From Gemmatimonadota bacterium (GTDB taxonomy: Bacteria > Gemmatimonadota > Gemmatimonadetes > Gemmatimonadales > GWC2-71-9): 64,000 nt of DNA. The position numbers were made by a program, and so were the translations under genes. A model generated the notes under the pieces. That model was given only the letters and a program-made list of their open reading frames with translations. It was not told the DNA's origin and did no database searches. Location of the stretch: positions 393 to 64,392 of the forward strand of contig JANNQX010000147.1 of assembly GCA_031400975.1 (NCBI GenBank). The letters run 5' to 3'. Positions 33,851-57,261 of this stretch are shown piece by piece (position 1 is the stretch's first letter; the number at the start of each line of letters is the position of its first letter).

Positions 33851-33867
33851 GCACCAAAGGATCACTG

Positions 33868-35169: not shown

Positions 35170-35205
35170 AAACGCTCCCGGCGCGGGGCCCGATCGCGAG
35201 GAACG

Positions 35206-39551: not shown

Positions 39552-39561
39552 CGAGGAGATC

Positions 39562-40512: not shown

Positions 40513-41327
40513 TGCTGGGGCGGGTGCCCGGGCTGACCGATCTCGCGCCGGTGGCGACTCGGGACGGTAGCGAGATCTGGCGAGCCCGTTGGAGGGGCGG
40601 CTCGTTGGTGGCGGTCAAGCTCCTCACGTCGGCCCGGCCCGACCGGGTCGCTCGCTTCGACATCGAAGGTCGCATCCTGATGGCGGTCGGGGGCCGGTGC
40701 GGTCTCGTCGGATTGGTGGCGCGACTGACCGATCCTCCGGCGTTGGTCCTCGAGTATCTATGCTCCGGCCATCTCGGCGACCGGATCCGGGCGGGCTCGG
40801 CCGGCCGGCCGATCGCCGAGGCGTGCCGGGTTTTGGCGCGAGTCGCCGAGGCCACCGCGTGGCTCCACCGGAATGACATCATTCATCGGGACATCAAACC
40901 CTCGAACATTCTGCTCGGCGAACCGGATCAAGTTCGCCTCAGTGACCTCGGAGTCGCCGCGTGGGGCCGTCCCCCGCGGGGATTGCCACCGGGGTTCGTG
41001 GAGGAGGAGGTGGGAACCCTTGGCTGGGCGGCGCCCGAACTACTCCAGCACCCCGGCACGGCTACGGTCGCGGTCGATATCTACGGGCTCGGAGCCACGC
41101 TATACGAGTTGCTCACCGGGCACCTCCCGTACGATTTCGGGGCAACCGAATCGACCGAGTCATACCGGGTCCGAATCAGAGACGGCGAACCAGCGGTTCC
41201 GATCCAGGATCGGGCCACCATCCCGGCGGCCTTGGCGGCGGTGGTTGACGCCGCCTTGGCGACTGAGCCGGACCGCCGGCCCGAATCGGCCGAGGCGTTC
41301 GGTGCTCAGGTCCTCAGATTTGCCTAA
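40512..41327 (+). CDS. Soluble Ser/Thr kinase (kinase domain only)
   Basis: VAVK, HRDIKPSN, DLG, GTLGWAAPE, DIYGLG; Gly-rich loop absent; TGATG coupling. Confidence 0.85.
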   Translation: MLGRVPGLTDLAPVATRDGSEIWRARWRGGSLVAVKLLTSARPDRVARFDIEGRILMAVGGRCGLVGLVARLTDPPALVLEYLCSGHLGDRIRAGSAGRPIAEACRVLARVAEATAWLHRNDIIHRDIKPSNILLGEPDQVRLSDLGVAAWGRPPRGLPPGFVEEEVGTLGWAAPELLQHPGTATVAVDIYGLGATLYELLTGHLPYDFGATESTESYRVRIRDGEPAVPIQDRATIPAALAAVVDAALATEPDRRPESAEAFGAQVLRFA

Positions 41328-42514
41328 CGAGCCGGCACGGTGTACCGATCGCGGCGATCGCGATACCGGTCGATGTGGAGGTGGAGACCGGTGCCGGCCC
41401 GGTCGGCCAGGCCGGCGGCTAGGGCGGCCCTGATCTGGCGCTGGAGGATGTCGTCACTGGAAAAATCCTTGACTCGAACGCCGACGGCCCCGAAACCGGC
41501 GATCAGGAATCCAATCTGCTCCCGGGAGAGATTCTTGACCCGAATGTCGAGCGCCCCGCCCGGTCCGTACAAGGAGAGGTGCTCGGGGTGGTCGGCTCCG
41601 GTGACCTCGATGTCCCGGGTGAAGCGCCGCCGGAATCCGATCCCAACTTGCTCAACCGCCACTCGAAACTGATCGGTCGACAACCGGGCCGGAAGGTTCT
41701 TGCTAAGGTCCATCCGACGACCGCCACCCCGCGAAAAGCCGGCCGGGGCGTCAAGCTGGTTGAAGCGATACACGTCGTAGACGGTGGCGGCCAGAGCCTC
41801 GATGGTCGGCCTGACGAACCGGTTGTCGGCGAGGAGGCTCTTTTCAAAGCCCGCCAGCGCCAAAGCGAATTCTTCCCGGGCGGCGTCCCGAAGCCCGAGT
41901 TCGAGGAGCGTCGATCCTCGCTCGATCGAACGACTCGATTCCGCCATGAGCGAATCGTAGAGCTGAATTTCCCGATAGGTGAACGAATCAGCCGGCTGAC
42001 CGGCCGCTACCTGAGCTTTGGACCAGGCGCGGTACCCGACATAGGCGCCGCCGATGGCCACCACGGCAAGAACGACGAGCAGGGCCGTCGCCCAACCAGG
42101 AAACCGCCCTTGGGGCGAGGCGGCCTTTCGAGGCCGTGACGGCTGACCTGGCGGGGAGGGAGTTGGGGTCGGCGCAGGTCGCGGGGTCACCGGGGCGGGA
42201 GGATCGATTCGCCCCTCTCCGATCGCCACATCCCATTTGGCCACCGGTCCAATCTCGATCCGGTCTCGGTCGCGGAGCTGGGTCGATTTGGTGACGGGCC
42301 GGCCGCCGATCCGAGGCGATGGGGCCCCGGGGAACGGCGAGAAGTAGACGCCGTCGGGGTGGAGCGTGATCGACGCATGTCGCTCGGCCACGCCCGGGAG
42401 TGAGCTTCGGAGGGCCGCGTTGCCACCCGACCCAATCCAAAACGGCGACCGATCCACGGTGACCGGGGCCCCTTGGGTCGGGGGCACCGGGATTAGCCGA
42501 ACGGGCGAGGACAC
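41324..42514 (-). CDS. Degenerate FHA + TM + C-terminal M15/LAS-like metallopeptidase-type domain
   Basis: FWIGS..VAERHA..LRDRDRIEIG; TM; EH..YG.GGALDIRV and terminal HLHID. Confidence 0.6.
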   Translation of the reverse strand: MSSPVRLIPVPPTQGAPVTVDRSPFWIGSGGNAALRSSLPGVAERHASITLHPDGVYFSPFPGAPSPRIGGRPVTKSTQLRDRDRIEIGPVAKWDVAIGEGRIDPPAPVTPRPAPTPTPSPPGQPSRPRKAASPQGRFPGWATALLVVLAVVAIGGAYVGYRAWSKAQVAAGQPADSFTYREIQLYDSLMAESSRSIERGSTLLELGLRDAAREEFALALAGFEKSLLADNRFVRPTIEALAATVYDVYRFNQLDAPAGFSRGGGRRMDLSKNLPARLSTDQFRVAVEQVGIGFRRRFTRDIEVTGADHPEHLSLYGPGGALDIRVKNLSREQIGFLIAGFGAVGVRVKDFSSDDILQRQIRAALAAGLADRAGTGLHLHIDRYRDRRDRYTVPAR

Positions 42515-44337: not shown

Positions 44338-47300
44338 CTACCTCCAGTACTGGGTCATATAGAGACGATGGTTCGGCCGGGTATTCCGCTGGCCGAGTTG
44401 GCAGAAAGCGAAGTGGCTCGCCGCGATCGTCTTGAGCCGCTCGGCGTCGGGCTTGGAGGCGGCCCGCACCAGGAAGACCGAACCAGACCGGAGTTCCCAG
44501 TCGCGGCCGGTCTCGACCACCTGGAGCTGATTCCGGTCGTAGGGGGTGCACTCTTCCTTCTTGATCTCGGTCCGCAAGTCGGAGGGAGATTTCCAATACT
44601 CGACGTAGTACGAGGTCGAATCGGGCCGGTTGGTGCGACGGCCGACATAGCAGTGCTGCTTGTAGCGCTTGGCCAGATTCATCGCTCGCTCGGCCTCGTC
44701 CTTTTTGTCGAAACGGAGCAAGGCCTGGCCCTGATGCTGGACCATCCACCCGCGCTCCTTGTCGTTCTTGAGCCCGAGCAACGAGGGCTCGTAGCTCAGG
44801 CAGTCCTCGCCCCCGGCGACGGAGACGCTCACGCTATCGCTCCGGACTGTGACGTTCGCGGTCGCGGTCTTGGCTTCGACCCGGACCGTAATGACGGCTC
44901 GGCCCACGGCCTTGGCGGTCACCTCCCCGTCGCCGACGGTGGCGACCCCCGGATCGCTGGAGGTCCACTCCGCCGGCCGATCGAGACGTTGTCCGGTGGC
45001 GTCGGTGACGGTTGGGTTGAGCCGGCGGGTCTCGCCGATCGCCAAGGTGAGACCGCTGGGTGCGAGTCGCACCCTCTCGACCGACGGGGCGGCCACGTTG
45101 ATCTGGACATTGATGGGGCTGATCTTGGCGGCCCTGGCGGTGATGACGGTATTCCCAACCCGCTTCGGCAGTACGATGACCGTATCGCCGGCAACGGACA
45201 GCGTCTGCGCGATCGCTGTGTCGCCGGTGACCTCCCAGGTGAGCGACCGGGCGGGCACCCGCTCGCCTTTCTGGTTCTTGATCGTTCCTACGATCCTGGC
45301 CGGGATCCCGAGGGTCGCGGCCACATTGGGAGGGAGGACTTCGATCGATAGAACGGTTTTGGGGATGAGCATATAGACCGCGATCGCCAGCGCGATCAGG
45401 ACCGGAATCACCCCAGTTGGGAGCAGGGCTCGGTGGCCGAACTGGGCCCTGGCCATGGTCGCTTCGGCCGGCATCCCGGCCGTCCGTCCATCGAGCCGAT
45501 CGACCTTGATGGTGCAGGACCGATTTTCCATCGCTCCCAAAGGACGGACTCGGCCCCGGACCGTGAGATCGATGGTGGCACCGACGCCCTGGTCGAGTGA
45601 AATCTCCGGCTGAGAGACGTGGTACCTGAGGGCCCGATCCTCGTCAGCGGCGCTGATACCGCACCGAACCATCGCGTTGCCATGGTTGGTGACGGCGACT
45701 CTGAAGGTGGCCTTCCGAAAGCCGGTGGCTCGGGCAGGCGTTACCACGACCGAGGTGTCGAAGTAGGGGAGGACCGTCCAGCTCATGCCGACAGTGCCGA
45801 CCTCTCCCGACACCGAGGCGACGGCGGAGATATCAACCTCGTAATCGCCGGCGACGTTCTCGGCCGCCCGGGGGACTCGAATGGTGAGGGGGACCGTGGC
45901 TCGTCCGTCCGGCACCAGTTGGATCCGCTCGGTCGGTAGTTCGGCCCACGCCTCCGGCGAGCCTCCGGGTCCCCGGACGCCCTCGACCCGGAGCACGAAG
46001 TGCTCGACTCTCTTACTGGTGTTGGCGATGGTGACGTTGACAATCGCCACCTGTTCGGGCGTTAGGGTCAGGTTGGTCGGCTCGACGACCACCATCACAA
46101 GCCTCGAGGTCCGGCCTTTCGGTCGCGGTTTGTCGGCTCCCGGCCGGTCTGGAGCCGGTTTGTTGGGCCGAGCGGGCGGGGGCCCCACGATCGAATCACC
46201 CAGCCCGCCAGGAGCCAGCGGCACGAACGGCTGGTCGTTTTCGAGTGGTACCGGGATCTGCACCGGGCCTCCGGCCCCGACCTTCCATCCCAACGCCGCC
46301 TCGGGTGAGGCCGGCGGCACCCTCAATCGGGGCGGGGGCGGAGGTGGAGGCGCCGCCGGCACTGGCCCCGGCGATCCGAGGTCGAGGTTGATCTGCCAGC
46401 GGCCCTCGGCCGAGCGCGGTAGTTCCGCCGGTGGCGGCGGGGGCGGCTGCGGAGCTCGTTCGCCTTGGGTCGGCGCGAAGTTGACCACGATATGTGACGG
46501 GTCGGGGCCGGCCGGTCGCTGGGAGGCCGGAGTGCCGAGGTTGACGACGACTTCACCACCCAATCGAAGCTCGGCCAGGGCGTGCTCGACCGCATGAGCC
46601 GTGGGGTAGCGCGCGGCGGGGTCTTTCTCGAGGCAGCGGAGCACGATCTGCTCAAGAGCCGGGGGCAGGGTCGGCACATTGAGGCTCGGCCGAGGCACCG
46701 GACTCGAGAGGTGTTTTTCGAAGGCGTCCTTCAGGGTCTTCACTTGAAAGGGTGGTCCGCCGGCGACGGCTTCGTAGAGCACCACACCTAACGAATAGAC
46801 GTCGCTCCGGGCGTCGACGTTGCCCTTGAAGTGCTCCGGTGACAGGTAGGGCAACGACCCGAACGCCATGTTCCCGCCGATCGTGGCCCCGAGTTCGGCC
46901 AGGCGGGTGAGGCCGAAATCGGCGACCATCGCCGTGGCGTTGCCGAATCCGGCTTGGCCGCTGCTTCGCTGGATCAAGACATTTTCGGGCTTGAGGTCGC
47001 GATGGAGCAGGCCTGCCGCGTGGGCCGCCGCCACGCCGTCGGCGACCTGGCGAAGCAGTAACACCGCACGAGCGAGGGGCAACTCCTGCTGAAACTGCTG
47101 AAGGAGGCCGCGGAGCGAGCCATCGGGGAGATACGGCTGGATCAGGTAGAACCGGCCGGCGGCCTCGCCGTATTGTTCGATCGAGATGATGTTCGGATGA
47201 CGAATGGCAGCGGCAGGTCTGACGATCTCCACAAAGCGATCGGCGAACCCCCGGTCATGAACAAAATGATCATGGAGCAGCTTGACGACGACCTGGCGGC

Positions 47301-47403
47301 CATTGTCCACGCGACGGGCTAAGTAGCTCTCGCCGAGAAAGCCCTTCCCGAGGGCCCGCTCGAACCGAGCGCCGGCGATGACGGTGCCGATTTGAGTGCT
47401 CAC
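44338..47403 (-). CDS. CIS-associated transmembrane Ser/Thr kinase (kinase, Pro-rich linker, tandem Ig-like domains, TM, 2x Big_2, duplicated Cys domain)
   Basis: GKGFLG, VVVK, HRDLKPEN, DFG, GSLPYLSPE, DVYSLG; GTG 47403 overlaps the stop of the FHA-tail gene (GTGA). Confidence 0.88.
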   Translation of the reverse strand: MSTQIGTVIAGARFERALGKGFLGESYLARRVDNGRQVVVKLLHDHFVHDRGFADRFVEIVRPAAAIRHPNIISIEQYGEAAGRFYLIQPYLPDGSLRGLLQQFQQELPLARAVLLLRQVADGVAAAHAAGLLHRDLKPENVLIQRSSGQAGFGNATAMVADFGLTRLAELGATIGGNMAFGSLPYLSPEHFKGNVDARSDVYSLGVVLYEAVAGGPPFQVKTLKDAFEKHLSSPVPRPSLNVPTLPPALEQIVLRCLEKDPAARYPTAHAVEHALAELRLGGEVVVNLGTPASQRPAGPDPSHIVVNFAPTQGERAPQPPPPPPAELPRSAEGRWQINLDLGSPGPVPAAPPPPPPPRLRVPPASPEAALGWKVGAGGPVQIPVPLENDQPFVPLAPGGLGDSIVGPPPARPNKPAPDRPGADKPRPKGRTSRLVMVVVEPTNLTLTPEQVAIVNVTIANTSKRVEHFVLRVEGVRGPGGSPEAWAELPTERIQLVPDGRATVPLTIRVPRAAENVAGDYEVDISAVASVSGEVGTVGMSWTVLPYFDTSVVVTPARATGFRKATFRVAVTNHGNAMVRCGISAADEDRALRYHVSQPEISLDQGVGATIDLTVRGRVRPLGAMENRSCTIKVDRLDGRTAGMPAEATMARAQFGHRALLPTGVIPVLIALAIAVYMLIPKTVLSIEVLPPNVAATLGIPARIVGTIKNQKGERVPARSLTWEVTGDTAIAQTLSVAGDTVIVLPKRVGNTVITARAAKISPINVQINVAAPSVERVRLAPSGLTLAIGETRRLNPTVTDATGQRLDRPAEWTSSDPGVATVGDGEVTAKAVGRAVITVRVEAKTATANVTVRSDSVSVSVAGGEDCLSYEPSLLGLKNDKERGWMVQHQGQALLRFDKKDEAERAMNLAKRYKQHCYVGRRTNRPDSTSYYVEYWKSPSDLRTEIKKEECTPYDRNQLQVVETGRDWELRSGSVFLVRAASKPDAERLKTIAASHFAFCQLGQRNTRPNHRLYMTQYWR

Positions 47404-48380
47404 GCGGCGAACTCCAGGGTATAGCCGACATGCGCCGGTTTGTGGGCCGCGACCAGGTACTCGATGAAATCCCGCCGGACGTCGCTGTTCGGCGGAATTG
47501 TGACCTTGATCTGAAAGGTATGCGGGCGGGCCGGGTTTTCGGAAATCACCGGGGTGATCCCGGTGCAGACTTCGATCATTCGGGACAGGCCATACCGAGT
47601 CCCGCGCCATCGGTACAGTTCCATGGCCTCCCGGAGCAGGCGGCGGCGGCGCGGCTCCGGCCAGTGACGGTCGACCGATAGCTGGAGCCAGCCCGCGAGC
47701 CACGAAAGGAACTCGGCGGGGCAGGTGCGCGGATCGTAGTACATCGCGATCTCGCTCTGGCGCCGTTCCAGGGGTTCCCAGAGGCTCTCGAAAATGAGCA
47801 GCATCCGGCCGAGGAAGGGGATCTTCGGGGCGGTCGTCTCGGAAAGATCGGCCGGCCCGCTGGCGGTGGCCGATGCCCCGTCGTCCTGGAAGATGGCCGG
47901 CAGGTCGTAGAGATAGCGACTGCAGGGGCCGAGGGCGCTCGGCGCGGGGAACCGGGGCCGAGCCTCGATCGGGACGATGTTGTGTTCGCTGGGGCGAGGG
48001 GGCGGGGTCCAGGCCTCGGTGGCGACAATCCCGGCCGGCCGGCTGGGGATCTCGATCCGGATGCCCGCCGTCGCCCACGTGAGCACGAAGGGGCCGATCC
48101 GAATCGGATCGCCCGGCGGTACCACGACGGGCCGGCTCGGCAACAGGGTTTCCGTCCCGACGAATGTTCCGGCCGCGCTGCCCAGGTCGGTAACGACAAG
48201 TCCGCTGTCTTCGAGGCGAATCTCGGCGTGCCGGCGCGAGACGCTATGATGCGGGAGCACCACGCCGTTGTCGGGGAGGCGCCCGACGGTGAGCGGGGCG
48301 GCTCCAAGGGTCAGCGTTCGGACGACCTCGCCTTCGAGCGAGATCGTAAGGATCGGCGATCCGGGTGGTGGTCCAACCAT
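47400..48380 (-). CDS. FHA domain fused to phage tail protein I/baseplate wedge (Tail_P2_I-like)
   Basis: N-terminal VGRLPDN..SVSRRHA..DLGS..GT; C-terminal YLYDLPAIFQ, YYDPRTCP.EFL.WLA.W, LYRWRGT, HKPAHV. Confidence 0.9.
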   Translation of the reverse strand: MVGPPPGSPILTISLEGEVVRTLTLGAAPLTVGRLPDNGVVLPHHSVSRRHAEIRLEDSGLVVTDLGSAAGTFVGTETLLPSRPVVVPPGDPIRIGPFVLTWATAGIRIEIPSRPAGIVATEAWTPPPRPSEHNIVPIEARPRFPAPSALGPCSRYLYDLPAIFQDDGASATASGPADLSETTAPKIPFLGRMLLIFESLWEPLERRQSEIAMYYDPRTCPAEFLSWLAGWLQLSVDRHWPEPRRRRLLREAMELYRWRGTRYGLSRMIEVCTGITPVISENPARPHTFQIKVTIPPNSDVRRDFIEYLVAAHKPAHVGYTLEFAA

Positions 48381-48389
48381 GGGTTTCGC

Positions 48390-50387
48390 CTAGGTCCGGT
48401 TGACGCGGTGGTCGTCGGAGCAGATCAATCCGTTGGGCGGAATGACCAACCGGGTCGGGGCAGGCCGTGGGGCGACGCCGGTGGCGGTTTCGCGGTACAA
48501 CACCTTGAGGTCGTCGACGAATTCCACGCCCGGGATTCGTTGCAACAGCGCGAAGAGCTCGGAGGTGTGGAGCTCCCGGCCGAAGGGCCAGCCCTTGCCG
48601 TCCGGCCCGCCGACGCACGGATTGAGGTAGCGGAGGAGTTCGGTCTCGCAGCGGCGACGCACTTCGGCCACCAGACCCGGCTCAGCGTTAGGCGGAAGAC
48701 CAACCCGGGCTTCCACCGAGACCCAGTAGAACTGGGGGGCCTGGACGGACACCTGGGTCCCGAGCAGTCGGCGCTCCGTGAGGTAGGCCTGAGTTGCTTG
48801 ACTGAGTTCGGTGGAGAGCAGCAGGCGCTCCGGTGGGATGTGGCCGCTCGGATCGTCGACCTCGGACAGAATCGTCACCACCACGTTGCCGGGCTTCGGG
48901 TCATTGGGGCCGCCGGGCTGGGACCCAGGACCCTGACAATGGGCCCGAAGCACGCCGGGTACCTGGCGGGCGAGGGTCTCGAAGTCGTCTTTGGTAACCG
49001 CGCGGGTTTGGGTCCGAAGCCGTTGGGGCGCCCGAAGCTTTGCGTCCTCAAGACTCTGTCCGTCGCGACCGCCCAGGGCCGGCTGCCGGTTTACCACTCG
49101 AGTGATATAGGGAATCGACGACTTGAGGACGGTGATCATGCCTTTGGGGACGTTGCCGGCCGCGCCGCCCCCGTGTTGATAGCGGCTGAACCGAAGCACG
49201 CTACCCTTGGCGGGCACTCGCCCGAACCGATAGACGTTGCCATCGGGCTGGAGGAGGGCCGGCCCCAAGTTCAGGGCGCCGTCATTGCTATCGAGCGTGA
49301 AGTGTGGATCGGTCGGACCTGAGTCGCCGAAGTCGGCGACCTCGGCCCAATGCTCGGGTGCGCCGCCGGGGGCGGTGACGACCAAGTAGTCGCGGCCGGG
49401 ATCCAAGGCGAGCACTGGGGTCTGCGACAGACGAAAGACCTGGCCGGCGGTACCATCGGCCTCGCCGAGGACTTCGTCCAGCACGGTGACCGCGTGCCGG
49501 GCCGGCACCGTCCCGCCGAGCGCCACCAGCCGCAGCTGGCCGATTTCGGGGGACTTTTCGTAGGTCGCCGATCCCGCGGGCGCCTCGACCATTCGAACCC
49601 GGAGCCAGTGGGCGGAGACGTCGCGGAAACTGATTTGAGCCATGGCGGGCAAATGGAGAATGACTTCGCCCGACCAAGTGAAGCCCCCGGTGCCGTCATG
49701 CTCGATGTCGCACGGAGCCCAGCGATCGGCCCCGCCCTGCCACACTTCCCAGATGATCGGGGGGTTGGTTGGATCGACGCCCGCGGTCTCGGCCGCCTGG
49801 CACTCGAGCGTAATGCCCAAGATCTGGTGGCTGTGGTCCTCCTTGAGCGCGAGGTAGAAGGCGTCGCCTGGGTTCGGCTCGCCGGCGAACAGCGGAATCC
49901 GTTGGCCGGGCAAATCGATTTGGCTGAGGTCGTGAGTCACCCACTGGCCTTCGTCGCGACGGTCGATATCGCGGGTGAAGGCGGCGACCAGCTTGGGAGG
50001 CCGGATGACGAGATCCGCCTCGGTCGTGAAGATGATCGCCGCATTGCTCTCGGTCCGCACGGTTCCGACCTCGGTATTCTCCGAGATGGACACGGGGCCA
50101 GGCTGGGGCGCCGAGAGGTAGAACGTGATCGGTACGTTGGCGGAGCGGGGTGGATCGAGCCTCACCCCGATCAAGTCGAGAAACTTCACGTACATCTTGT
50201 CCGGCGTCTGATTGACCCGGTAGAGCAACAGGTCGGTCATCCAGGCAAACAGCTCGATCAACGCAACCCCGGGGTCACTGACGTTGTGGTCAGTCCACTC
50301 CGGGCAATATTGCGGGATCAGGGTCTTGGCCTGATCGACGATGTCCTGAAACCGCCGGTCGTCAAGGCTGACAGTAGGTAAGGGCAT
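48390..50387 (-). CDS. CIS baseplate assembly protein (baseplate J/gp6-like)
   Basis: LDDRRFQDIVD..IPQYCPEWTDHNVSDPGV, GGGAAGNV, RAVTKDDFE, GWPFGR. Confidence 0.93.
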   Translation of the reverse strand: MPLPTVSLDDRRFQDIVDQAKTLIPQYCPEWTDHNVSDPGVALIELFAWMTDLLLYRVNQTPDKMYVKFLDLIGVRLDPPRSANVPITFYLSAPQPGPVSISENTEVGTVRTESNAAIIFTTEADLVIRPPKLVAAFTRDIDRRDEGQWVTHDLSQIDLPGQRIPLFAGEPNPGDAFYLALKEDHSHQILGITLECQAAETAGVDPTNPPIIWEVWQGGADRWAPCDIEHDGTGGFTWSGEVILHLPAMAQISFRDVSAHWLRVRMVEAPAGSATYEKSPEIGQLRLVALGGTVPARHAVTVLDEVLGEADGTAGQVFRLSQTPVLALDPGRDYLVVTAPGGAPEHWAEVADFGDSGPTDPHFTLDSNDGALNLGPALLQPDGNVYRFGRVPAKGSVLRFSRYQHGGGAAGNVPKGMITVLKSSIPYITRVVNRQPALGGRDGQSLEDAKLRAPQRLRTQTRAVTKDDFETLARQVPGVLRAHCQGPGSQPGGPNDPKPGNVVVTILSEVDDPSGHIPPERLLLSTELSQATQAYLTERRLLGTQVSVQAPQFYWVSVEARVGLPPNAEPGLVAEVRRRCETELLRYLNPCVGGPDGKGWPFGRELHTSELFALLQRIPGVEFVDDLKVLYRETATGVAPRPAPTRLVIPPNGLICSDDHRVNRT

Positions 50388-50400
50388 GGGTGTGGCTCTC

Positions 50401-50823
50401 TCACTCCCCTGGGATGCGGTAGAAGGGGAAAACCAAGGAGCGCTGATCGTAAGTTGCTTTGATCTCGTAATGGATCCGAATCATCAACCGCTCGTCGTGG
50501 TCGGGGTCAGCGTCTGCCTCGATGCTGAGCACCGTGATCCGGGGCTCCCACATCTTGAGGGCGTCCTCCACGTAGGACGCGGCCAGGCCCGCTGTCGTCG
50601 CATTGTTTTCCGCGAAGATCAGATCGTGGATCTGGCAGCCGAATTCCGGTCGCATGACCCGTTGGCCCTTAGGCGTGAGGAGGATCATCGCCATCGCTTC
50701 CTCGATGTCCCGCTCCCGGTGGGAGAGGGAAATCCGGCCTCGGACGTCAGTGGTGACCGGGAACGACCAGCCACTCCCGACGAAGTCCCTGCTGCGATGG
50801 TTGCTACCGAAACCTGTTGCCAC
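50401..50823 (-). CDS. GPW/gp25 baseplate protein
   Basis: GSGWSFP, ILLTPKGQRVMRPEFGC, WEPRI, LVFPFY. Confidence 0.93.
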   Translation of the reverse strand: MATGFGSNHRSRDFVGSGWSFPVTTDVRGRISLSHRERDIEEAMAMILLTPKGQRVMRPEFGCQIHDLIFAENNATTAGLAASYVEDALKMWEPRITVLSIEADADPDHDERLMIRIHYEIKATYDQRSLVFPFYRIPGE

Positions 50824-50834
50824 GGAGTTCCATT

Positions 50835-52505
50835 TCAGTTCAGGTTGACCATGGTGCCCTTGACCGTGACCGTGCCACCCCCGCCATCGAGTTTGGCACT
50901 CATTCCTTTCACCTCAACCGCTCCGGTCGCGGCGATATTGCACTTCCCGCCGGCCTTGACGTCGACGTTGCCTTTGGCGTCGATGGTGGCGTCGCCCTTG
51001 ACCGTGATCGTGAGCTTGTCCGACCCGGTGTCGAGCTTGATCGAGTTCCCATTCTTGTCGACGATCTCGATTCCGCCGCCGCCGTCGGTGTCGTCGAAGA
51101 GGAGTTTGTGGCCGACCCGGGTCTGGATCACTCGCTTTTGGACCTTACTGCCGGACACCGCGTCCTTGGCGTCCTTGGGTTGCTTGTCGACGCCGTTCCA
51201 GAGGCCGCCCAGGATGTATGGCTGGTGAATATCGCCCTGCTCGAAGCCGACGAGGACCTCGTCCTCGATTTCAGGCAGGAAACTGATCCCCCGGTCGGCT
51301 CCGGCCCCGATCGAGACAACCCGGGACCAAAAACTCGCCTGGTCCGACGCCAACCAAGGGAATTTGACCTTGACCCGGCCAAGGCTTTGGGGATCGTTGT
51401 TGTCAGTGACGATCGCGATCGCGAGACCGGTGTGGGTTGGCGGCGAGGTGGAGGCGAGGAGTGAGAGTAGGGTCGACGGGTTCTGGCCCGAAACACTGAA
51501 GTGGGTTTTGAAGCTCTTGTCTTCACCGTATTCGTGCCGGCAACTCGTCACCAGATAGGTTCCGCTGAACCGAGTACCGAGGGAAGAGATCTTGACGGGG
51601 GAACCGGCCAGGATCTGGGGGTTCCCGGCACAGACGGCCTCGGCCTCGATGAACCGGCTGGCGTGCTCCCCGGCAAGCGCTTTCGCCAAGGCATCGGCCG
51701 ATGCTTGGTCACGCACCGGAATATGGGCGCCTTGGTTGGTCGCGTTGCCTCCAAAGGCCTGCTCAGCCAGGCTCCCTCCGGGTTTGACTCCGACCTCCGG
51801 TCCGCCTTCGTTGGTCTTGGCCCGACCGACGACCTCCTGTTTTTTCTCTGGATCCCAGCCTCGGACGATGGTCCCGGTGACTTGGTCGACGGTCGTCAAA
51901 CAGGGATGGAATTCCGTGAGCGTGGCGGGCCACTGGAGATCAACCGACGGCCCGTCGGCTTTTGGCTCGGTGAAGTGGAGGGTCTTCCCGTCAACATAGA
52001 CCACGAATCCGAGAGCGGCGGCCCGCTTGCGGAGAAACTCGAGGTTGGTCTCGTTATTCTGGAACAAGTACTTGTGGACCGGCCCGGCTTTTCCATTGAA
52101 GCCCAGGCCGGCTTCACCGGCAAGCTTCTTGGCCACGTCCGCGTCGGTGACGTTGACGAACGAACGAACTTTGCGGCCGCGTGACAACCGGTGCAGCCGG
52201 TCGAACGCTCGGACGACCAACCGGACGGCGTCAAGGCCGAAGGCCGGCTCGAGTCCGACGATCTCGCCGTCGAACACCAAGTGGTCCTTGCCATCGGTAT
52301 TGGCTTTGATCTTGAGAGACTTGCCCGGTTCGAGGACTTGTTGGTCAATCCAATGAAGGCGGCTGTCGTGGAGCACCAAGGTTGCGGAGTCCGGCAAGTG
52401 AAGACTGCTCTCGACCGTCAGTGCGACGAGGTCGACAACCAGCTCGTCATGCAGTTGGCCGTCGATCTCGAGGTGAACATGGTTGAGGAGCGCCGGACTA
52501 CCCAT
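50835..52505 (-). CDS. VgrG-like spike (gp27-gp5)
   Basis: QNNETNLEFL, GWDP..K, GRVKVKFPW, FLPEIEDEVLVGFEQGD..PYILGGLWNG, beta-helix ending VNLN. Confidence 0.93.
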   Translation of the reverse strand: MGSPALLNHVHLEIDGQLHDELVVDLVALTVESSLHLPDSATLVLHDSRLHWIDQQVLEPGKSLKIKANTDGKDHLVFDGEIVGLEPAFGLDAVRLVVRAFDRLHRLSRGRKVRSFVNVTDADVAKKLAGEAGLGFNGKAGPVHKYLFQNNETNLEFLRKRAAALGFVVYVDGKTLHFTEPKADGPSVDLQWPATLTEFHPCLTTVDQVTGTIVRGWDPEKKQEVVGRAKTNEGGPEVGVKPGGSLAEQAFGGNATNQGAHIPVRDQASADALAKALAGEHASRFIEAEAVCAGNPQILAGSPVKISSLGTRFSGTYLVTSCRHEYGEDKSFKTHFSVSGQNPSTLLSLLASTSPPTHTGLAIAIVTDNNDPQSLGRVKVKFPWLASDQASFWSRVVSIGAGADRGISFLPEIEDEVLVGFEQGDIHQPYILGGLWNGVDKQPKDAKDAVSGSKVQKRVIQTRVGHKLLFDDTDGGGGIEIVDKNGNSIKLDTGSDKLTITVKGDATIDAKGNVDVKAGGKCNIAATGAVEVKGMSAKLDGGGGTVTVKGTMVNLN

Positions 52506-53163
52506 TCGGGATCACCAGCGTCATCCCGGGCGGCAGGTGACGGACGGTCTCCAGCTGATTCGCTTCCGCGATCAGCCGCCACATCGACGTGTCGCCATAC
52601 TCCTTGTAGGCGATCCATCCGAGGCTGTCGCCGGCGGTCACGGTCCAGACCCGGTCGCCGCCGATTCCCCCAGAGGTGGGGTTTTGTTTGGCGAGGGCCT
52701 CCTCGTCCTTGGCCTGCTGAAAACTGACCGTGACCATGGCCCGGACCGGGATTCCGTCCTCCAGAAAAAGCGTAAACTTCTGGCTCAGGCTGGTGATGAC
52801 TCCCTCGAACGACCACGTCTTACCCCAGACGAACTTGACCTTCGGTGGGCGTCCTTTCTTGCTCTTCTTGTCCTTGAGCTTGGGATCGACCAGCATCAGC
52901 TTCCACAGCTTGTCGGTGTACTTGGTCCGGACGTCTTCCGGTTTGACCCCGGGCTTCGCGTCGAGGTAGGTATCGAACAGCAATTCCATCGCCAAAGTTG
53001 CTGGTGATCCGCCGCCAAACGTCGTCTGGGGAGTATTGGCCCCGGCTTTCTGATCGCTAGTCCAATTGTTCTTCTTGTCGAACGTGTAAGTGTTCGGATT
53101 GAAGAGACACTCCAACCTCTGGGAGTTCTCCAGATTGATGATTTCTGCTTTGCTGAGCGCCAT
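52498..53163 (-). CDS. CIS tube initiator/LysM protein (Afp7-like)
   Basis: CLFNP, PPKVKFVWG, FLEDGIPVRA, QNPTSGG, LysM GDSL..IA..EYGD..WR.IA.AN. Confidence 0.9.
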   Translation of the reverse strand: MALSKAEIINLENSQRLECLFNPNTYTFDKKNNWTSDQKAGANTPQTTFGGGSPATLAMELLFDTYLDAKPGVKPEDVRTKYTDKLWKLMLVDPKLKDKKSKKGRPPKVKFVWGKTWSFEGVITSLSQKFTLFLEDGIPVRAMVTVSFQQAKDEEALAKQNPTSGGIGGDRVWTVTAGDSLGWIAYKEYGDTSMWRLIAEANQLETVRHLPPGMTLVIPNG

Positions 53164-53180
53164 GGCGGCCTCTCCCTCTC

Positions 53181-55772
53181 CTAATGGGCCCGGCGCCGCT
53201 CACCAGCGAGGCGACGCTTGAGGACCGTATAGACTTGTTTGGCGAGCGTATCGAGGTCGACCTTCGGCGCGCCGCCGATTGCTGCCGGCCCCGTGGGCGC
53301 CGAGGCATGCTGATCCGGCACCTGCCGGTCCGCCCCAGCCGCCTGAATCGGCGGCGGCGTGGTGGTGACCGACCAGGGTCCGGCCGGGGCCGAGGGACTG
53401 GTCGGACCCGCCGACCCCACCTCGGCTACCGGTCCGGACCGACTTGGCGGTAGATCCGGCAGCGGTTCCCAAGGTGCCGGGAGAGTTCCCCACCGCGGCG
53501 GCGCCTCTGGATCGGCCGGCGTTAGGCTCCGGATCGGCGCCTCGTGCGGGTCGAGAATTTCGGTCGCCGGCACCGGCGGCGGAGGGCTCGACCCCCGGGT
53601 GGCACCCGATGTGCGATCGCGGCTGGCCGCGATTGCCGCGGCCTCAACCACCAACGCCATCGCCTCTTCCTCGGCGGCGTGCGTCACACTCGGGGCGCCC
53701 TGGCCCGGACCCCGGGGCGTCGACTGCTGCCGCGCCGAAGGACGGAACGGCGGTCGGCCGGGCTGGACCGGGCGCGGCATGCCTCGAAGAATCGGGGGCA
53801 CGAACCGGGGGGTCCGTTGTCGGGCAACGTGGAGGAGTTCATGGCCCAGCAGGCCAACCGTCTTCGGGTCACTGTCCTGGTGGCCCGGGCCCAGGACGAT
53901 CTGTTCCCCGACCGCCAGCGCATCGGCCTGGAGCGCTCCAGTCGCTTCAGCAGCCTCGGCCCCTTGGTGAACCCGAACCGAACCGACATCGATTCCGATC
54001 AGCGGCTCAAGCAATTCGCGATTGGCAATCGACAGCGGCTGCCCTTGTGGCGGAGCTTTGGCCGGGGTTTGCGGGGCCTGGACTTCCAAAGGTCCGTGGG
54101 CGGCCTGAAGTCGGGCGAGCCACTCCATCGGGCCGGCCGATTCTTCGACCGGCGGCGGCTCGATCGGTGGCGGCTCGATCGGTAGCGACGCGGCCGCGGC
54201 GCCGGCGGGCTGAACCGCTTCGGCGGCTGGCTCCGGCGCGACCGATCGGGTCTCATCCCCGGCGCGGTGTTCGAGGGATCGCTCGGGGCGGCGACCAGGG
54301 GAGCGAGCCTGTCGGGTTTCGACCGGCGCCCAGTTGGGAGCCGGCGGCTTCGGATCGATCGCGGCCGACGGGGGGGCGAGGGCGGTTTCGACCGGCAGCG
54401 TCGGCTGGGCTCCGATCGCAGCCTCGGCGCCGACCGGCTCGCCGCTCGGCCCGGCCCTCACCGGCTCGGCCTCGATCGCCGCTTGGCCGATCAGTTCGCC
54501 GGCAACCGGTTCCCATGCCGGTCCGCTGACCGATTCGTCCGGGGTCGGCTGGAGCGAGTCGGAGATCACGGGGGGCTGCGACGTAGGGCCAGGTTCGGAA
54601 ACCAGCCGGGGGCTCTCGGCGTGACTCACCGGGTCTGAAGGCGGCGGGCCCGAGGTTGCGACGGCCGAAGGCGCTGCGGCTTCCGGGCCTGCCGCTGCCC
54701 GGGCAATCGCCGGTTCGGCACGAGGTGTCGGCTCGGGAACCAAAGCCGGGCTCACGGGGGGCGGGGTCGTCGTCGGCGTCTGGTCAGCGATCGGCGTGGC
54801 CACCGGTTGGTCCGAGGGAGCGGTCCCGACCAGCCCGGGGGTTGGGGCCGATGTCATCGAGGGTTCGGGGGCCGGGGCCGGGGGCAGGATTTCCGGGACT
54901 TGGGCGACTGGAATTGCCGTCTCGCGCCCAACCGGCTCGACCACCGGGTTCCAGGGTGCCTCGACCGTTACCGGTTCCGGTTCTGTGGTGGACGCGACCG
55001 ACGCCGGAGCTTCTCCCACGACCGGCGGTGTCGTCGAGTCGACGTTGGGCGGCTCGGCGGAGGTGGCGGCAAGGGCCGGCCGAGGGGCCGGGGGCATCGG
55101 TGCGGCCTCGGCCTTGAGCGGCTCGACCGTTCGAGGCGATGGGGTGGTCTGGGCAACTCGTGGCTCAAGTGAGGGCGCCGAACGCCCGGGTGATCGAGAT
55201 CCGACGGCAACGCCGGTCACGTCATTCACCTCACTCACCTCACTCACCTCACCCACCTCACCCACCTCACTCACCTCACCCACCTGACCGACGTCACTCA
55301 CCTCACCCACGTCACTCAGGTCACTCACGTCGGCCGGTTCGGGCGTCGGGGTCCCGGGTGCCGCTGCGACGGTCAGGTCGGGCGCCTCGCCGGCGGTGTC
55401 GGCGACGGGGCCTGGGGGGCCCACGGCATCGTCCAGTTCCCAACGTAGGGGCTCAAAGCCCAGGGCAGGGGCCGGATCGTCGGCGGGGCGGAGGCCTGCA
55501 GGGGCTGTCGGTTCTTCAGGCTTCGCGAGGGGCCAACTCGGACGGATGCTCGTTGAGTCGACCGGCTCGACGAACCGTCGCGCCGGAGCGGGCCTGTCAC
55601 GCTCGGGCCGGGGGGCCCAATTGAGCAAGGTGAGTCGGCGCCTGGCGATCCCGACCGTCTCTAGGATGAGCTGCCCAGTCGTCGGGCGCTGGAGGATGGC
55701 ATGGCGGCGCCGGAGCGTCGTCGCGAATCGCTCCATCCGGGCAAGGCGGACTCGATTGAGCCAAGTTAGCAT
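53181..55772 (-). CDS. Pro-rich DUF4157 (eCIS core) protein; tape-measure/lumen-cargo candidate
   Basis: VRVHQG..A..LQADALAVGEQIV...LLGHELLHVARQ; long low-complexity arms; C-terminal DLDTLAKQVY..LKRRL. Confidence 0.8.
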   Translation of the reverse strand: MLTWLNRVRLARMERFATTLRRRHAILQRPTTGQLILETVGIARRRLTLLNWAPRPERDRPAPARRFVEPVDSTSIRPSWPLAKPEEPTAPAGLRPADDPAPALGFEPLRWELDDAVGPPGPVADTAGEAPDLTVAAAPGTPTPEPADVSDLSDVGEVSDVGQVGEVSEVGEVGEVSEVSEVNDVTGVAVGSRSPGRSAPSLEPRVAQTTPSPRTVEPLKAEAAPMPPAPRPALAATSAEPPNVDSTTPPVVGEAPASVASTTEPEPVTVEAPWNPVVEPVGRETAIPVAQVPEILPPAPAPEPSMTSAPTPGLVGTAPSDQPVATPIADQTPTTTPPPVSPALVPEPTPRAEPAIARAAAGPEAAAPSAVATSGPPPSDPVSHAESPRLVSEPGPTSQPPVISDSLQPTPDESVSGPAWEPVAGELIGQAAIEAEPVRAGPSGEPVGAEAAIGAQPTLPVETALAPPSAAIDPKPPAPNWAPVETRQARSPGRRPERSLEHRAGDETRSVAPEPAAEAVQPAGAAAASLPIEPPPIEPPPVEESAGPMEWLARLQAAHGPLEVQAPQTPAKAPPQGQPLSIANRELLEPLIGIDVGSVRVHQGAEAAEATGALQADALAVGEQIVLGPGHQDSDPKTVGLLGHELLHVARQRTPRFVPPILRGMPRPVQPGRPPFRPSARQQSTPRGPGQGAPSVTHAAEEEAMALVVEAAAIAASRDRTSGATRGSSPPPPVPATEILDPHEAPIRSLTPADPEAPPRWGTLPAPWEPLPDLPPSRSGPVAEVGSAGPTSPSAPAGPWSVTTTPPPIQAAGADRQVPDQHASAPTGPAAIGGAPKVDLDTLAKQVYTVLKRRLAGERRRAH
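55212..55328 (-). repeat. 13 x 9-bp coding tandem repeat (V-[SG]-[ED])n
   Basis: + strand units CACCTCACT/CACCTCACC; protein VSD LSD VGE VSD VGQ VGE VSE VGE VGE VSE VSE VND VTG. Confidence 0.9.
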
Positions 55773-55778
55773 CGCCGC

Positions 55779-56216
55779 TCACAGCTTACGAGTAATGCCC
55801 GAGTGCGCCAACTCGAGCGTTTCGACGGCCAGCGCGGTGCCATCGGCGACGAGCTGCGGACCGATCCACTTGACGGGGAACGCACCCAGAAAATCCCAGT
55901 GGGCGATCAACCGGCCGGTCGGATTGAACACGAACAAGGAGAGGTTCTTCTTCTCGATGCCGAGCTGGCTGCCCGCCAAATCGGCATGCCATTTGAAGAA
56001 CTCATTGCCCTTGGTGATGCCTCGTTTGAGGGTCAGATTGCCGACCTTGGAGCGGCCGGGCAACTTATGGACGAAGCCGTTGTTGCCACCTTCCTCGTAG
56101 TCCTGCACGGTCGTCTCAACCTGAAGTCCGCTCGCTTCAGTAAAGACCGCTTGGGTTTCGTTGCCGATCTGGACATAGAACCGGCAGTTGACGAAGCCTT
56201 CGTCCTTGTCAGCCAT
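55779..56216 (-). CDS. CIS minor tube protein (gp19/Afp5-like)
   Basis: FTEASGL, YEEGGNN..HKLPG, LTLKRGI, AFPVKWIGP, ETLELAHSG. Confidence 0.92.
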   Translation of the reverse strand: MADKDEGFVNCRFYVQIGNETQAVFTEASGLQVETTVQDYEEGGNNGFVHKLPGRSKVGNLTLKRGITKGNEFFKWHADLAGSQLGIEKKNLSLFVFNPTGRLIAHWDFLGAFPVKWIGPQLVADGTALAVETLELAHSGITRKL

Positions 56217-56219
56217 GGG

Positions 56220-56369
56220 TCACCCCGGAGTCCGTTGAACCCCACGGGCGCGGTCCAGCTTGGCCTCGGCGTGCATCAGCTGGTAGACCCGCTCGGCCAG
56301 TTTGGCCACGTCGATCTTGGGAAGACCGGCGGCCGCCGGGGCCGGCTGCTGGGCGGATTGGGGCTCCAT
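56220..56369 (-). CDS. 49-aa CIS small protein (missing from the ORF track)
   Basis: Hand-translated MEPQSAQQPAPAAAGLPKIDVAKLAERVYQLMHAEAKLDRARGVQRTPG*; GGAG SD 7 nt upstream; fills the gap between chaperone and tube genes. Confidence 0.7.
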   Translation of the reverse strand: MEPQSAQQPAPAAAGLPKIDVAKLAERVYQLMHAEAKLDRARGVQRTPG

Positions 56370-56372
56370 CGG

Positions 56373-56738
56373 TCAGCTCCCCACCGTTTCGGTCAGATCG
56401 ACGGGGAACCGAGCGCCGCACTCCGGGCACTGGGTTTCGGCAAGGCCAGCTCCGCTGTCGTTGAGGCGAACGAACAAGTCCTGCAGATAGGAGAAATCCG
56501 CCGAGAACAGCCTCTCGACGACCTCCGGCCCCGGGCCTTCAACCGAACCGATCCGGACGAGGACCCGGCTGAGCAGTACCACGCTCAAGTAGGATTCATG
56601 GGCCCGGACTCGGGGATCCTTCATTGCTTCGAGCTCATCAAGCGCGGTGGAGAGCCGCATCACGCCGTCGCGCCGAAGGGTTCCGGTCTGATCGACCAGA
56701 CCGCACGGTAGCGTGAATTCGTACTCGGTTTGCAGCAT
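56373..56738 (-). CDS. Putative tail assembly chaperone of actinobacterial-type CIS
   Basis: QTEYEFTLP.G.VD..G...R.G.MRL.TA.DE, ERLFSADF.YLQD, CPECG. Confidence 0.82.
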   Translation of the reverse strand: MLQTEYEFTLPCGLVDQTGTLRRDGVMRLSTALDELEAMKDPRVRAHESYLSVVLLSRVLVRIGSVEGPGPEVVERLFSADFSYLQDLFVRLNDSGAGLAETQCPECGARFPVDLTETVGS

Positions 56739-56779
56739 GAGCGCCTCTCCCGCGTCTTAATCGGTTGATTCGAATTGCT

Positions 56780-57220
56780 CTACTTGACCCGCTTATATCC
56801 TTCGTGGGTGATGGTCAACTCTTCCAACGCCACCTCGTTGTTGGCGGCGTTGCCGGTCGGCCCTGACAGCTTGCACGGCCACGCATTGACGAAGTCCCAC
56901 CGGGCTATTTCAGTGCCCTTCTGGTCGAACATCACCAGGGACCCATTCTTGCGCGCTTCGTCGATCTTGCCTTGCTCGCATAGTCCGCGCCAGGTCCACA
57001 TCAGCATCGAATCCGAGACCCCCTGCTTGAGGACGATGTCGTTCCATTTCATTCGCCCCGGGAGCTTCTTCATGATGTACTCGCCCTTCGGACCGGTCGC
57101 CTTGTGCTCGACGACCTGGGTCTCACTCCCCATTCCGGTGCACTCTTTGAACGCTCCCTGAATTTTGCCCTGAAACTCAAGGCCGAACCATGCCGATACT
57201 AAAGGGTCCTTCTCAGCCAT
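56780..57220 (-). CDS. CIS major tube protein (gp19/Afp1-like)
   Basis: FKECTGMGSE, KLPGRMKW, RKNGS, ARWDFVNAWP, EELTITHEG. Confidence 0.93.
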   Translation of the reverse strand: MAEKDPLVSAWFGLEFQGKIQGAFKECTGMGSETQVVEHKATGPKGEYIMKKLPGRMKWNDIVLKQGVSDSMLMWTWRGLCEQGKIDEARKNGSLVMFDQKGTEIARWDFVNAWPCKLSGPTGNAANNEVALEELTITHEGYKRVK

Positions 57221-57261
57221 GATGATCTCCTAGCTAGTGAAAGTGTATTTAGGCTCGAAAC

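Follow-up and report, generated by a model that had tools for sequence, protein, structure and literature searches.

In the H1 type VI secretion system (T6SS) of Pseudomonas aeruginosa, a threonine phosphorylation pathway comprises the kinase PpkA, Fha1 and the phosphatase PppA, and the resulting phosphothreonine (pThr) is read by an FHA domain, promoting assembly or firing of the machine. How the cytoplasmic contractile injection systems (CIS) of the Streptomyces type find the membrane and time their firing is an open question. Here we describe, in a 64,000-nucleotide stretch of a Gemmatimonadota genome (contig JANNQX010000147.1, positions 393 to 64,392 of the forward strand; hereafter the window), the gene of a 1021-residue transmembrane (TM) Ser/Thr kinase, P0001, that lies inside an operon of this CIS type, and our analysis suggests that this kinase belongs, as a conserved and integral component, to a phage-tail-like injection machine that phosphorylation may switch on or dock at the membrane.

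Two kinds of membrane protein are associated with Streptomyces CIS. CisA (SCO4242) is a bitopic protein encoded in the fibre slot and needed for firing (PMC12237407), while its link to the particle is unproven. The Sco4256-58 proteins have a single TM helix and highly similar N-termini, with a ricin-like C-terminus in two of them, and deletion of sco4256-58 phenocopies CIS deletion (PMC10066040). The first domain of the Sco4256 type is pilus chaperone-like, with a TM region after it; class IId extracellular CIS (eCIS) of actinomycetes, cyanobacteria and Chloroflexi contain homologues, and mass spectrometry placed Sco4256 in all three CIS particle purifications (PMC10020575). These proteins have been called effectors on indirect grounds. 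Full-text literature searches yielded no account of an eCIS-type system with a kinase or FHA domain among its parts, although the supplementary tables of the eCIS surveys may list such genes: the terms 'kinase' and 'FHA' are absent from the two Streptomyces papers (PMC10066040, PMC10020575) and from the CisA paper (PMC12237407), and a 2026 paper for which Deinococcus grandis was grown for CIS work makes no mention of either. In the literature searched, the combination of a CIS accessory family with T6SS-like regulatory logic is not described.

The gene of P0001 directly follows that of a baseplate wedge protein fused to an FHA domain, and the features that carry the argument are, in window coordinates:

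44338..47403, minus strand: gene of the 1021-residue bitopic Ser/Thr kinase P0001, stop codon included (reading frame, Pfam, family alignment)
46579..47361, minus strand: Hanks-type kinase domain, residues 15-275 (Pfam Pkinase, motifs intact)
46111..46536, minus strand: Pro-rich linker, residues 290-431 (41 Pro in 142 residues)
45445..46110, minus strand: tandem immunoglobulin-like (Ig-like; ASH/PapD-like) module, residues 432-653 (AlphaFold2 model, Foldseek, profile searches)
45358..45426, minus strand: single TM helix, residues about 660-682 (hydropathy; helix 236-250 of the AlphaFold2 model)
45088..45348, minus strand: residues 686-772, possibly a first Ig-like ectodomain (Big_2 assignment unconfirmed)
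44848..45081, minus strand: Big_2 domain, residues 775-852, predicted extracytoplasmic (Pfam, E 1.2e-7)
44341..44823, minus strand: duplicated two-Cys C-terminal domain, residues 861-1021 (internal repeat)
47400..48380, minus strand: FHA::Tail_P2_I (Cis12/Afp12-like) baseplate wedge gene (Pfam FHA 4.7e-17, Tail_P2_I 3.3e-19)
48390..58824, minus strand: rest of the CIS operon, from sheath to Baseplate_J (Pfam)

The plus-strand reading of 44338-47403 contains many stops, while the minus strand holds one frame of 1021 residues. Its GTG start (47403) overlaps the TGA of the wedge gene with a gap of -4 (junction GCCGCGTGAGC), and a GGAG lies about 10 nt 5' of it; the frame is open further 5', and the orthologues nonetheless begin with MSTQ at the same GTG in the alignment. 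The kinase gene is the eleventh of 13 minus-strand operon genes, which are separated by intergenic gaps of -8 to 156 nt and follow the order sheath (1), tube (2), orf121 (3), tube (4), eCIS_core with DUF4157 (5), CIS_tube-LysM (6), VgrG-like spike (7), gp25 (8), Baseplate_J or Cis11 (9), FHA::Tail_P2_I or Cis12 (10), kinase (11), a Zn-ribbon/TM/PEGA/Sel1 protein (12) and a bitopic protein with a weak FHA match (13). In Cis12, the pThr-binding residues of the FHA domain (G33-R34, S48 and H51, of the GR and SxxH motifs) are invariant in 14/14 homologues. The host genome (G000) is a metagenome-assembled genome (MAG) of 4.76 Mb in 314 contigs, 92% complete, the window lying on contig C147, and the nearest GTDB relatives of the window are Gemmatimonadota MAGs. 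A word-indexed search with residues 430-1021 gave 13 proteins that share the full non-kinase architecture, all of them metagenomic and 34-100% identical.

The kinase domain matches Pfam Pkinase (PF00069) with an E of 3.5e-38 and 131.9 bits, against a curated cut-off of 31.7, and GKGFLG, K41, H134-R135-D136, N141, D162-F-G and S188-P-E are all present and invariant in 11/11 aligned family members. The activation-loop residues T166 and T174 are likewise invariant in the family, and the linker that follows is poorly conserved. The nearest solved relatives are PknE, PknA, PknB and StkP (E about 1e-34 to 1e-37). P0001 shares with the receptor kinases PknB and StkP the Hanks domain, the juxtamembrane linker, the single TM helix and the repeated ectodomains; however, it differs from them in its two Ig domains on the cytoplasmic side, as predicted below, in its non-PASTA ectodomain and in the placement of its gene inside a CIS operon.

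An AlphaFold2 model of residues 430-690, built from a 26-row alignment, shows two beta-sandwiches and then a helix, with a mean predicted local distance difference test score (pLDDT) of 88.7 and a predicted template modelling score of 0.73. Foldseek groups the module with tandem ASH/PapD-like Ig pairs (Cep192, HYDIN-type, RbmA), and Pfam gives weak matches to FixG_C (3.5e-5) and NPCBM_assoc (0.042); an ESM Atlas look-up, which served as a lead, hinted at Actinomycetota clusters with FixG_C/Cep192_D3. By both a narrow and a broad hidden Markov model (HMM; E<1e-3), only this gene of the host genome carries the Ig-Ig module. The single hydropathy peak of P0001, at about 659-687, is its sole hydrophobic segment, and directly N-terminal of the TM helix stands a conserved FGHRALLP motif with R658 and P662 invariant in the family alignment. 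Because this sole TM helix is C-terminal to the kinase, the linker and both Ig domains, all of these should lie on the cytoplasmic side, a topology that we infer from the one helix together with the need for ATP. Periplasmic Ig domains were considered and dropped, since the sole TM helix lies after the Ig pair and the kinase must be cytoplasmic; in the Streptomyces homologues, moreover, the module begins at residue 6, no signal peptide precedes it, and a peptidoglycan-binding or ricin domain lies on the far side of the TM helix.

Beyond the TM helix, residues 775-852 form a Big_2 domain, and residues 686-772 have no Pfam match below E 0.1 and align with the Big_2 copy only at a BLASTP E of 0.16. 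The last 161 residues (861-1021) are an internal duplication (E 5e-11) of about 75 residues per repeat, each with one conserved Cys pair (C868/C918 and C952/C1001, invariant in the family alignment) and the motif G-R-x-N-x-R-P-N...Y-x-x-(E/Q)-Y-W. This domain is modelled confidently (pLDDT 82.3) and is without a family or fold match, the best being E 0.14 in Pfam and E 0.39 in a Foldseek search of the PDB, with a best Z of 5.5 over 40 residues in a wide VIA-align search; the lack of a match is no evidence of a new fold. The duplicated domain is presumed to be a sensor or binding domain. A homologous domain ends a Peptidase_C1 (papain-family) protein of the Bacteroidota species Autumnicola lenta (L008:9071-10474). 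Among relatives of P0001 the ectodomains differ, with Kelch, PASTA, PKD, SH3 and MBG domains.

An original prediction for this gene, made from the sequence letters, had read a GTGA coupling to the FHA-wedge gene, an intact kinase, a long Pro-rich linker, two Ig-like domains and an RALLP motif followed by a TM helix, all of which are borne out by the results above. Of the two Big_2 copies that it had proposed, the one at 775-852 stands and the stretch 686-772 does not, and the duplicated C-terminal domain had been missed.

The same prediction had likened the Ig-Ig-TM block to kinase-less proteins encoded in Streptomyces CIS loci, and reciprocal HMM matches now establish that homology. The forward HMM was built from the Gemmatimonadota family only, with E values scaled to Z = 1e6; it matches the 'hydrolase' of the CIS locus on S. 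clavuligerus plasmid pSCL4 with an E of 4.5e-19 and a Kitasatospora protein with 4.7e-15, in both over the first 200 residues, after which the TM helix comes at about residue 221 and 224, respectively. A search with the S. clavuligerus N-terminus gave 292 relatives (E<=1e-5), and the top 120 of these are almost all named Streptomyces proteins, S. venezuelae included, under such names as hydrolase, COG1470 family, peptidoglycan-binding, RICIN domain-containing and 'hydrogenase expression protein', and the Gemmatimonadota HMM matches 120/120 of them (E 5e-22 to 8e-12). In the reverse direction, an HMM of the Streptomyces N-termini picks out only the kinase gene among 31,924 six-frame open reading frames (ORFs) of the host genome, with an E of 2.1e-16 over the Ig-Ig module and the TM helix. 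By family description, annotation and position, the relationship fits a module family that would include the kin of Sco4256-58.

P0001 is a fused variant rather than a plain member of the Sco4256-58-like family. Both have the tandem-Ig module of the N-terminal Streptomyces type with a TM helix at once after it and a variable extracytoplasmic C-terminus, and the genes of both belong to CIS loci that share one lineage. However, the module of P0001 is preceded by a 430-residue kinase and linker, whereas that of the Sco4256-58 family is N-terminal with no enzymatic domain before it; the C-terminus of P0001 consists of Big_2 and the duplicated Cys domain rather than a ricin or peptidoglycan-binding domain; and the kinase gene directly follows Cis12, while their genes have the sheath operon on one side and the ATPase on the other. 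Pfam scans of two Streptomycetaceae loci show Cis12 proteins of 222 and 183 residues without FHA, and the Ig-Ig-TM proteins of these loci are without a kinase.

The comparison with CisA is less close. Both genes lie directly downstream of the baseplate wedge genes, and a cytoplasmic part is proposed to contact the baseplate in both (for CisA, PMC12237407), but CisA has neither kinase nor Ig domains. The CisA family is marked by a Cys-rich, Zn-binding region N-terminal of the TM helix and by a conserved C-terminal domain of about 150 residues. The fibre-slot genes of the two Streptomycetaceae loci encode Zn-ribbon proteins (584 residues in S. clavuligerus, 662 in Kitasatospora), which we take as CisA homologues by position and Zn ribbons, and a BLASTP comparison of the kinase with them gave a best E of 4.1. 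The original placement of the kinase in a 'membrane adaptor' (CisA) slot is therefore right as to position after the wedge genes and finds no counterpart in sequence similarity to the Zn-ribbon fibre-slot proteins (E > 4). By architecture, with its Zn ribbon, TM helix and PEGA/Sel1 repeats, the next gene is the better CisA analogue; homology of this Sel1 protein to CisA-like proteins is not claimed, as only the zinc-ribbon motif aligns (E 0.001 to 0.011).

The association of the kinase with the baseplate genes is kept across genomes. Six Gemmatimonadota MAG loci, found among GTDB species genomes with the non-kinase part as query, keep one order as far as their contigs reach, namely eCIS_core / CIS_tube-LysM / VgrG / gp25 / BaseJ / FHA::P2_I / kinase / Sel1. 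Among 17 metagenome loci found by the Ig-Ig block alone, 15 have a full FHA::P2_I gene upstream, with BaseJ and further genes before it where the contig permits, and the other two contigs have merely 1.4 kb and 0.16 kb of upstream DNA. Five cultured Deinococcus species (D. grandis, D. aquaticus, D. taeanensis, D. actinosclerus and D. psychrotolerans) encode gp25, Cis11 and Cis12 and then a protein of about 1600 residues with the architecture kinase-FHA-IgIg-TM; their Cis12 carries FHA and Tail_P2_I in 4/4 proteins tested with Pfam, and the genes overlap by 4 nt in 4/5 species. The kinase-FHA-IgIg-TM architecture is also that of many metagenome kinases, and three metagenome loci have five tandem paralogues 3' of FHA::Cis12, consisting of two kinase-FHA-IgIg-TM proteins, one kinase-FHA-IgIg protein without a TM helix and two FHA-IgIg-TM proteins:

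L013:8513-20672: array of five paralogues; Cis12 and the first kinase are separated by a gene of about 1.6 kb
L017:8474-19821: array of five paralogues; Cis12 and the first kinase are separated by a gene of about 1.6 kb
L020:8396-20565: array of five paralogues; Cis12 and the first kinase are separated by a gene of about 1.6 kb

Of 401 sampled Gemmatimonadota genomes, 15 contain CIS_tube; the Ig-Ig match is strong in three (G000, G145, G278), where it lies about 7 kb from CIS_tube and on the same strand. Of 13 CIS loci retrieved from this sample, two have FHA::P2_I together with the kinase, eight have no kinase and a P2_I match that begins at query residue 142 or later, that is, without FHA, and three lack any P2_I match. 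The kinase-less loci belong to other CIS lineages, their BaseJ being 23-34% identical to that of the window. The sheath of the window is 54-61% identical to that of Deinococcus and 50-54% to that of Streptomycetaceae, and its BaseJ 49-50% and 40-41%, respectively; by these sequence identities the CIS of the window, of Deinococcus and of Streptomycetaceae are assigned to the same lineage. In every locus examined, the kinase fusion and the Cis12 FHA fusion co-occur.

The Ig-Ig-TM module itself is widespread. An exhaustive phmmer search with residues 430-690 gave 2183 representative proteins with E<=1e-3, of which 406 reach E<=1e-10. Among 186 module-bearing proteins classified with local HMMs, kinase plus FHA is the commonest architecture (89), followed by kinase only (35), FHA only (35), a module that is N-terminal or truncated (17) and others (10); a TM helix comes directly after the module in nearly all, and Pfam finds FHA in 28/36 kinase-less representatives scanned. 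The original prediction had a CIS-binding membrane anchor gain a kinase; these states are intermixed on an unrooted Ig-Ig tree, which gives no direction of kinase gain or loss. As a context-blind sample, tblastn with two queries against 72,556 plasmids yielded 13 distinct loci, of which ten are CIS loci: those of the five Deinococcus species, S. clavuligerus pSCL4 ('hydrolase'), Kitasatospora, Streptomyces NBC_01324 ('hydrolytic protein') and NBC_01426 ('RICIN domain-containing protein'), and S. cattleyicolor pSCAT.

Based on these findings, we propose that P0001 is a bitopic receptor kinase built on a CIS-associated Ig-Ig-TM scaffold which, together with FHA-Cis12, forms a pThr switch through which a signal from the envelope would lead a Streptomyces-type CIS to dock, assemble or fire, and we put the probability of this reading at roughly 0.55. 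We propose it because the kinase is intact and coupled to FHA-Cis12, the FHA residues are invariant, kinase and FHA-Cis12 co-occur, and the module is common to proteins that co-purify with CIS. The proposal builds on observed architecture, homology, operon coupling, synteny and this co-occurrence, and from them predicts the topology, the phosphorylation, its binding by FHA and a contact of the Ig pair with the CIS. The ectodomain, with Big_2 and the duplicated, disulfide-type domain, would detect or bind some feature of the envelope, and such a signal would activate the kinase. pThr would then arise on the kinase itself, for which activation-loop T166/T174 are candidate sites, or on a CIS protein. 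The Cis12-fused FHA domain would read this pThr, so that the inner membrane may become the site where the baseplate is recruited, assembled or triggered, and the Ig pair may supply a phosphorylation-independent contact with the particle.

By analogy, we propose that the switch would work like PpkA-Fha1 of the T6SS, though on an Afp/eCIS-type machine, and would parallel the role proposed for Streptomyces CisA. Both the T6SS and this locus encode a TM Hanks kinase and an FHA protein with a contractile machine. However, the machine here is of the Afp/eCIS type (Phage_T4_gp19 tubes, CIS_tube, eCIS_core, Tail_P2_I, Baseplate_J), with no Tss membrane-complex family among the window ORFs scanned with Pfam; the FHA domain forms part of the baseplate wedge protein itself; the Ig-Ig module is joined to the kinase; and the locus has no PP2C phosphatase. 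More broadly, the Ig-Ig-TM module might be a general membrane dock of the Streptomyces/Deinococcus/Gemmatimonadota CIS lineage, with firing or docking gated in most members by a pThr switch that FHA domains on dock and wedge would read, a generalization that we hold tentatively and at somewhat less than even odds.

Several observations weigh against the pThr switch. The kinase orthologue in genome G278 has HGA for HRD and DAG for DFG and is therefore likely a pseudokinase, so that catalysis appears dispensable in at least one lineage; its CIS context is otherwise identical:

L034:7280-10330 (same record as L004): G278 kinase orthologue, likely pseudokinase

The linker has only two Thr, T291 and T312. 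No PP2C is found on contig C147, all six PP2C_2 matches of the genome being on other contigs. The cap gene (Pvc16_N, DUF4255) occurs just once in the genome, on a different contig (G000:C123:1830-2330), and the scanned window ORFs include no AAA ATPase; therefore, the CIS genes appear to be split over at least two loci or contigs. Nor is the module strictly tied to CIS, as one of the 13 plasmid loci is an orphan followed by a PAAR gene, in S. cadmiisoli, and two others have no CIS gene within 12 kb, namely Streptomyces NBC_01471 ('hydrolase') and a D. gobiensis kinase that is a weak, one-domain match to the Ig-Ig query. The orphan pair, which looks like an effector island, is:

L051:11986-13807, Streptomyces cadmiisoli plasmid: orphan Ig-Ig-TM protein and PAAR-domain gene, away from CIS structural genes

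As to sampling, the scans of genome contigs and metagenomes used peptide patterns of close relatives and are thus biased to this clade, and the genomic context is known for a minority of the 2183 module-bearing representatives. Finally, Casu et al. 2023 take Sco4256-58 for cargo effectors and not for docks, on the grounds of an empty tube lumen in the mutant and toxicity in E. coli (PMC10066040).

Some of these points would be met if the protein were a phosphorylation-independent anchor or scaffold, its kinase a structural or pseudokinase appendage, and the FHA domain of Cis12 a reader of pThr made by other kinases. The G278 orthologue without catalytic Asp and DFG speaks for such an anchor, as do the kinase-less modules of the Streptomycetaceae and the presence of other kinases, two of them within 10 kb in the window and a further one a few kb from the G278 locus. 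Yet catalytic residues that are invariant in the window protein and in 11/11 family members, and two fusions, of the kinase and of the Cis12 FHA domain, that occur together in every locus examined, make this rather unlikely. It is also conceivable that the kinase senses the envelope and controls CIS expression or other processes via soluble substrates, with no link to the particle. TM Hanks kinases that control the expression of injection systems do exist, as PknS of Xanthomonas citri does for its T6SS (PMC13147305), and a profile search gives 48 Pkinase matches in the host genome; but an FHA domain fused to a structural baseplate protein that is translationally coupled to the kinase, an Ig-Ig module common to proteins of purified Streptomyces particles (PMC10020575) and the lack of any transcription factor in Pfam scans of the operon proteins argue against an indirect regulator, which we consider unlikely.

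P0001 could also be an effector, a toxin that the CIS carries on or inside it and delivers, as Casu et al. 2023 hold for Sco4256-58. The homology to Sco4256-58-like proteins, reported as toxic in E. coli and needed for a filled lumen (PMC10066040), and the S. cadmiisoli homologue adjoining a PAAR gene are consistent with cargo. A membrane protein of 1021 to 1600 residues with a kinase and a large ectodomain would, however, hardly be tube cargo; the gene is coupled to baseplate genes and not to spike or DUF4157 genes, and arrays of up to five tandem FHA-bearing paralogues look like signalling proteins rather than toxins, so that we regard this as improbable. Even less can be said for a tail-fibre substitute, in which Big_2 and the C-terminal domains would be the receptor-binding part of a released extracellular particle: the gene does occupy the fibre position of Afp/PVC-type loci (PMC12237407, PMC10020575) and the ectodomains do vary between relatives, but the TM helix and the cytoplasmic kinase would hold the protein in the membrane of the producer, and Pfam finds no fibre-like coiled coil or trimeric repeats. 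A mere chance neighbour, one of the 48 kinase matches that happens to stand beside a CIS operon, is scarcely credible, being contradicted by a gene order kept in two phyla, by the start/stop overlap and by the fact that no other gene of the genome bears the module.

The genes around the kinase and wedge genes show further features:

53181-55772, minus strand: eCIS_core (DUF4157) protein of 863 residues
42530..44275, minus strand: bitopic protein with Zn ribbon (68-90), TM helix (241-259), PEGA and Sel1 repeats (Pfam, synteny)
41324..42514, minus strand: final operon gene, bitopic protein with TM helix 142-160 (Pfam FHA E 0.0022, short of the curated cut-off)
31271-41327, plus strand: convergent signalling cluster

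In the eCIS_core protein, about 570 Pro/Ala/Glu-rich low-complexity residues precede the core domain, with an (E/D)V(S/G) run at about 150-185. The Zn-ribbon/Sel1 gene is found directly 3' of the kinase throughout the Gemmatimonadota loci and the closest metagenome loci, and by eye its product may have two short kinase N-lobe-like stretches at the N-terminus. The protein of the last operon gene has a weak N-terminal FHA match, then a Pro-rich linker, and at its C-terminus a domain without a family, of about 235 residues; homologues are found in loci L003 and L009. The convergent cluster comprises a Big_1/invasin-like protein, a 472-residue protein, a double-Zn-ribbon kinase (727 residues, one TM helix), a 4-TM protein, a VWA-TM protein, a TM-FHA protein and a second kinase, and may feed the same FHA readers. 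Split CIS genes are seen also in Deinococcus plasmids, where the operons diverge.

In conclusion, this locus joins a receptor kinase, a pThr reader on a baseplate protein and a module of the Sco4256 type, and thereby offers a testable route of signalling from the envelope to the baseplate. Because cultured, non-pathogenic Deinococcus species carry the same arrangement, genetics, cryo-electron tomography and phosphoproteomics are feasible. If the module is a general membrane dock gated by such a pThr switch, the PpkA-Fha1 logic of the T6SS would have been invented independently on an eCIS-type machine, and arrays of up to five paralogues with differing ectodomains would let one machine answer several envelope signals. 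Sco4256-58 would then be membrane receptors or docks rather than cargo, and the function of the Sco4256 family deserves a second look.

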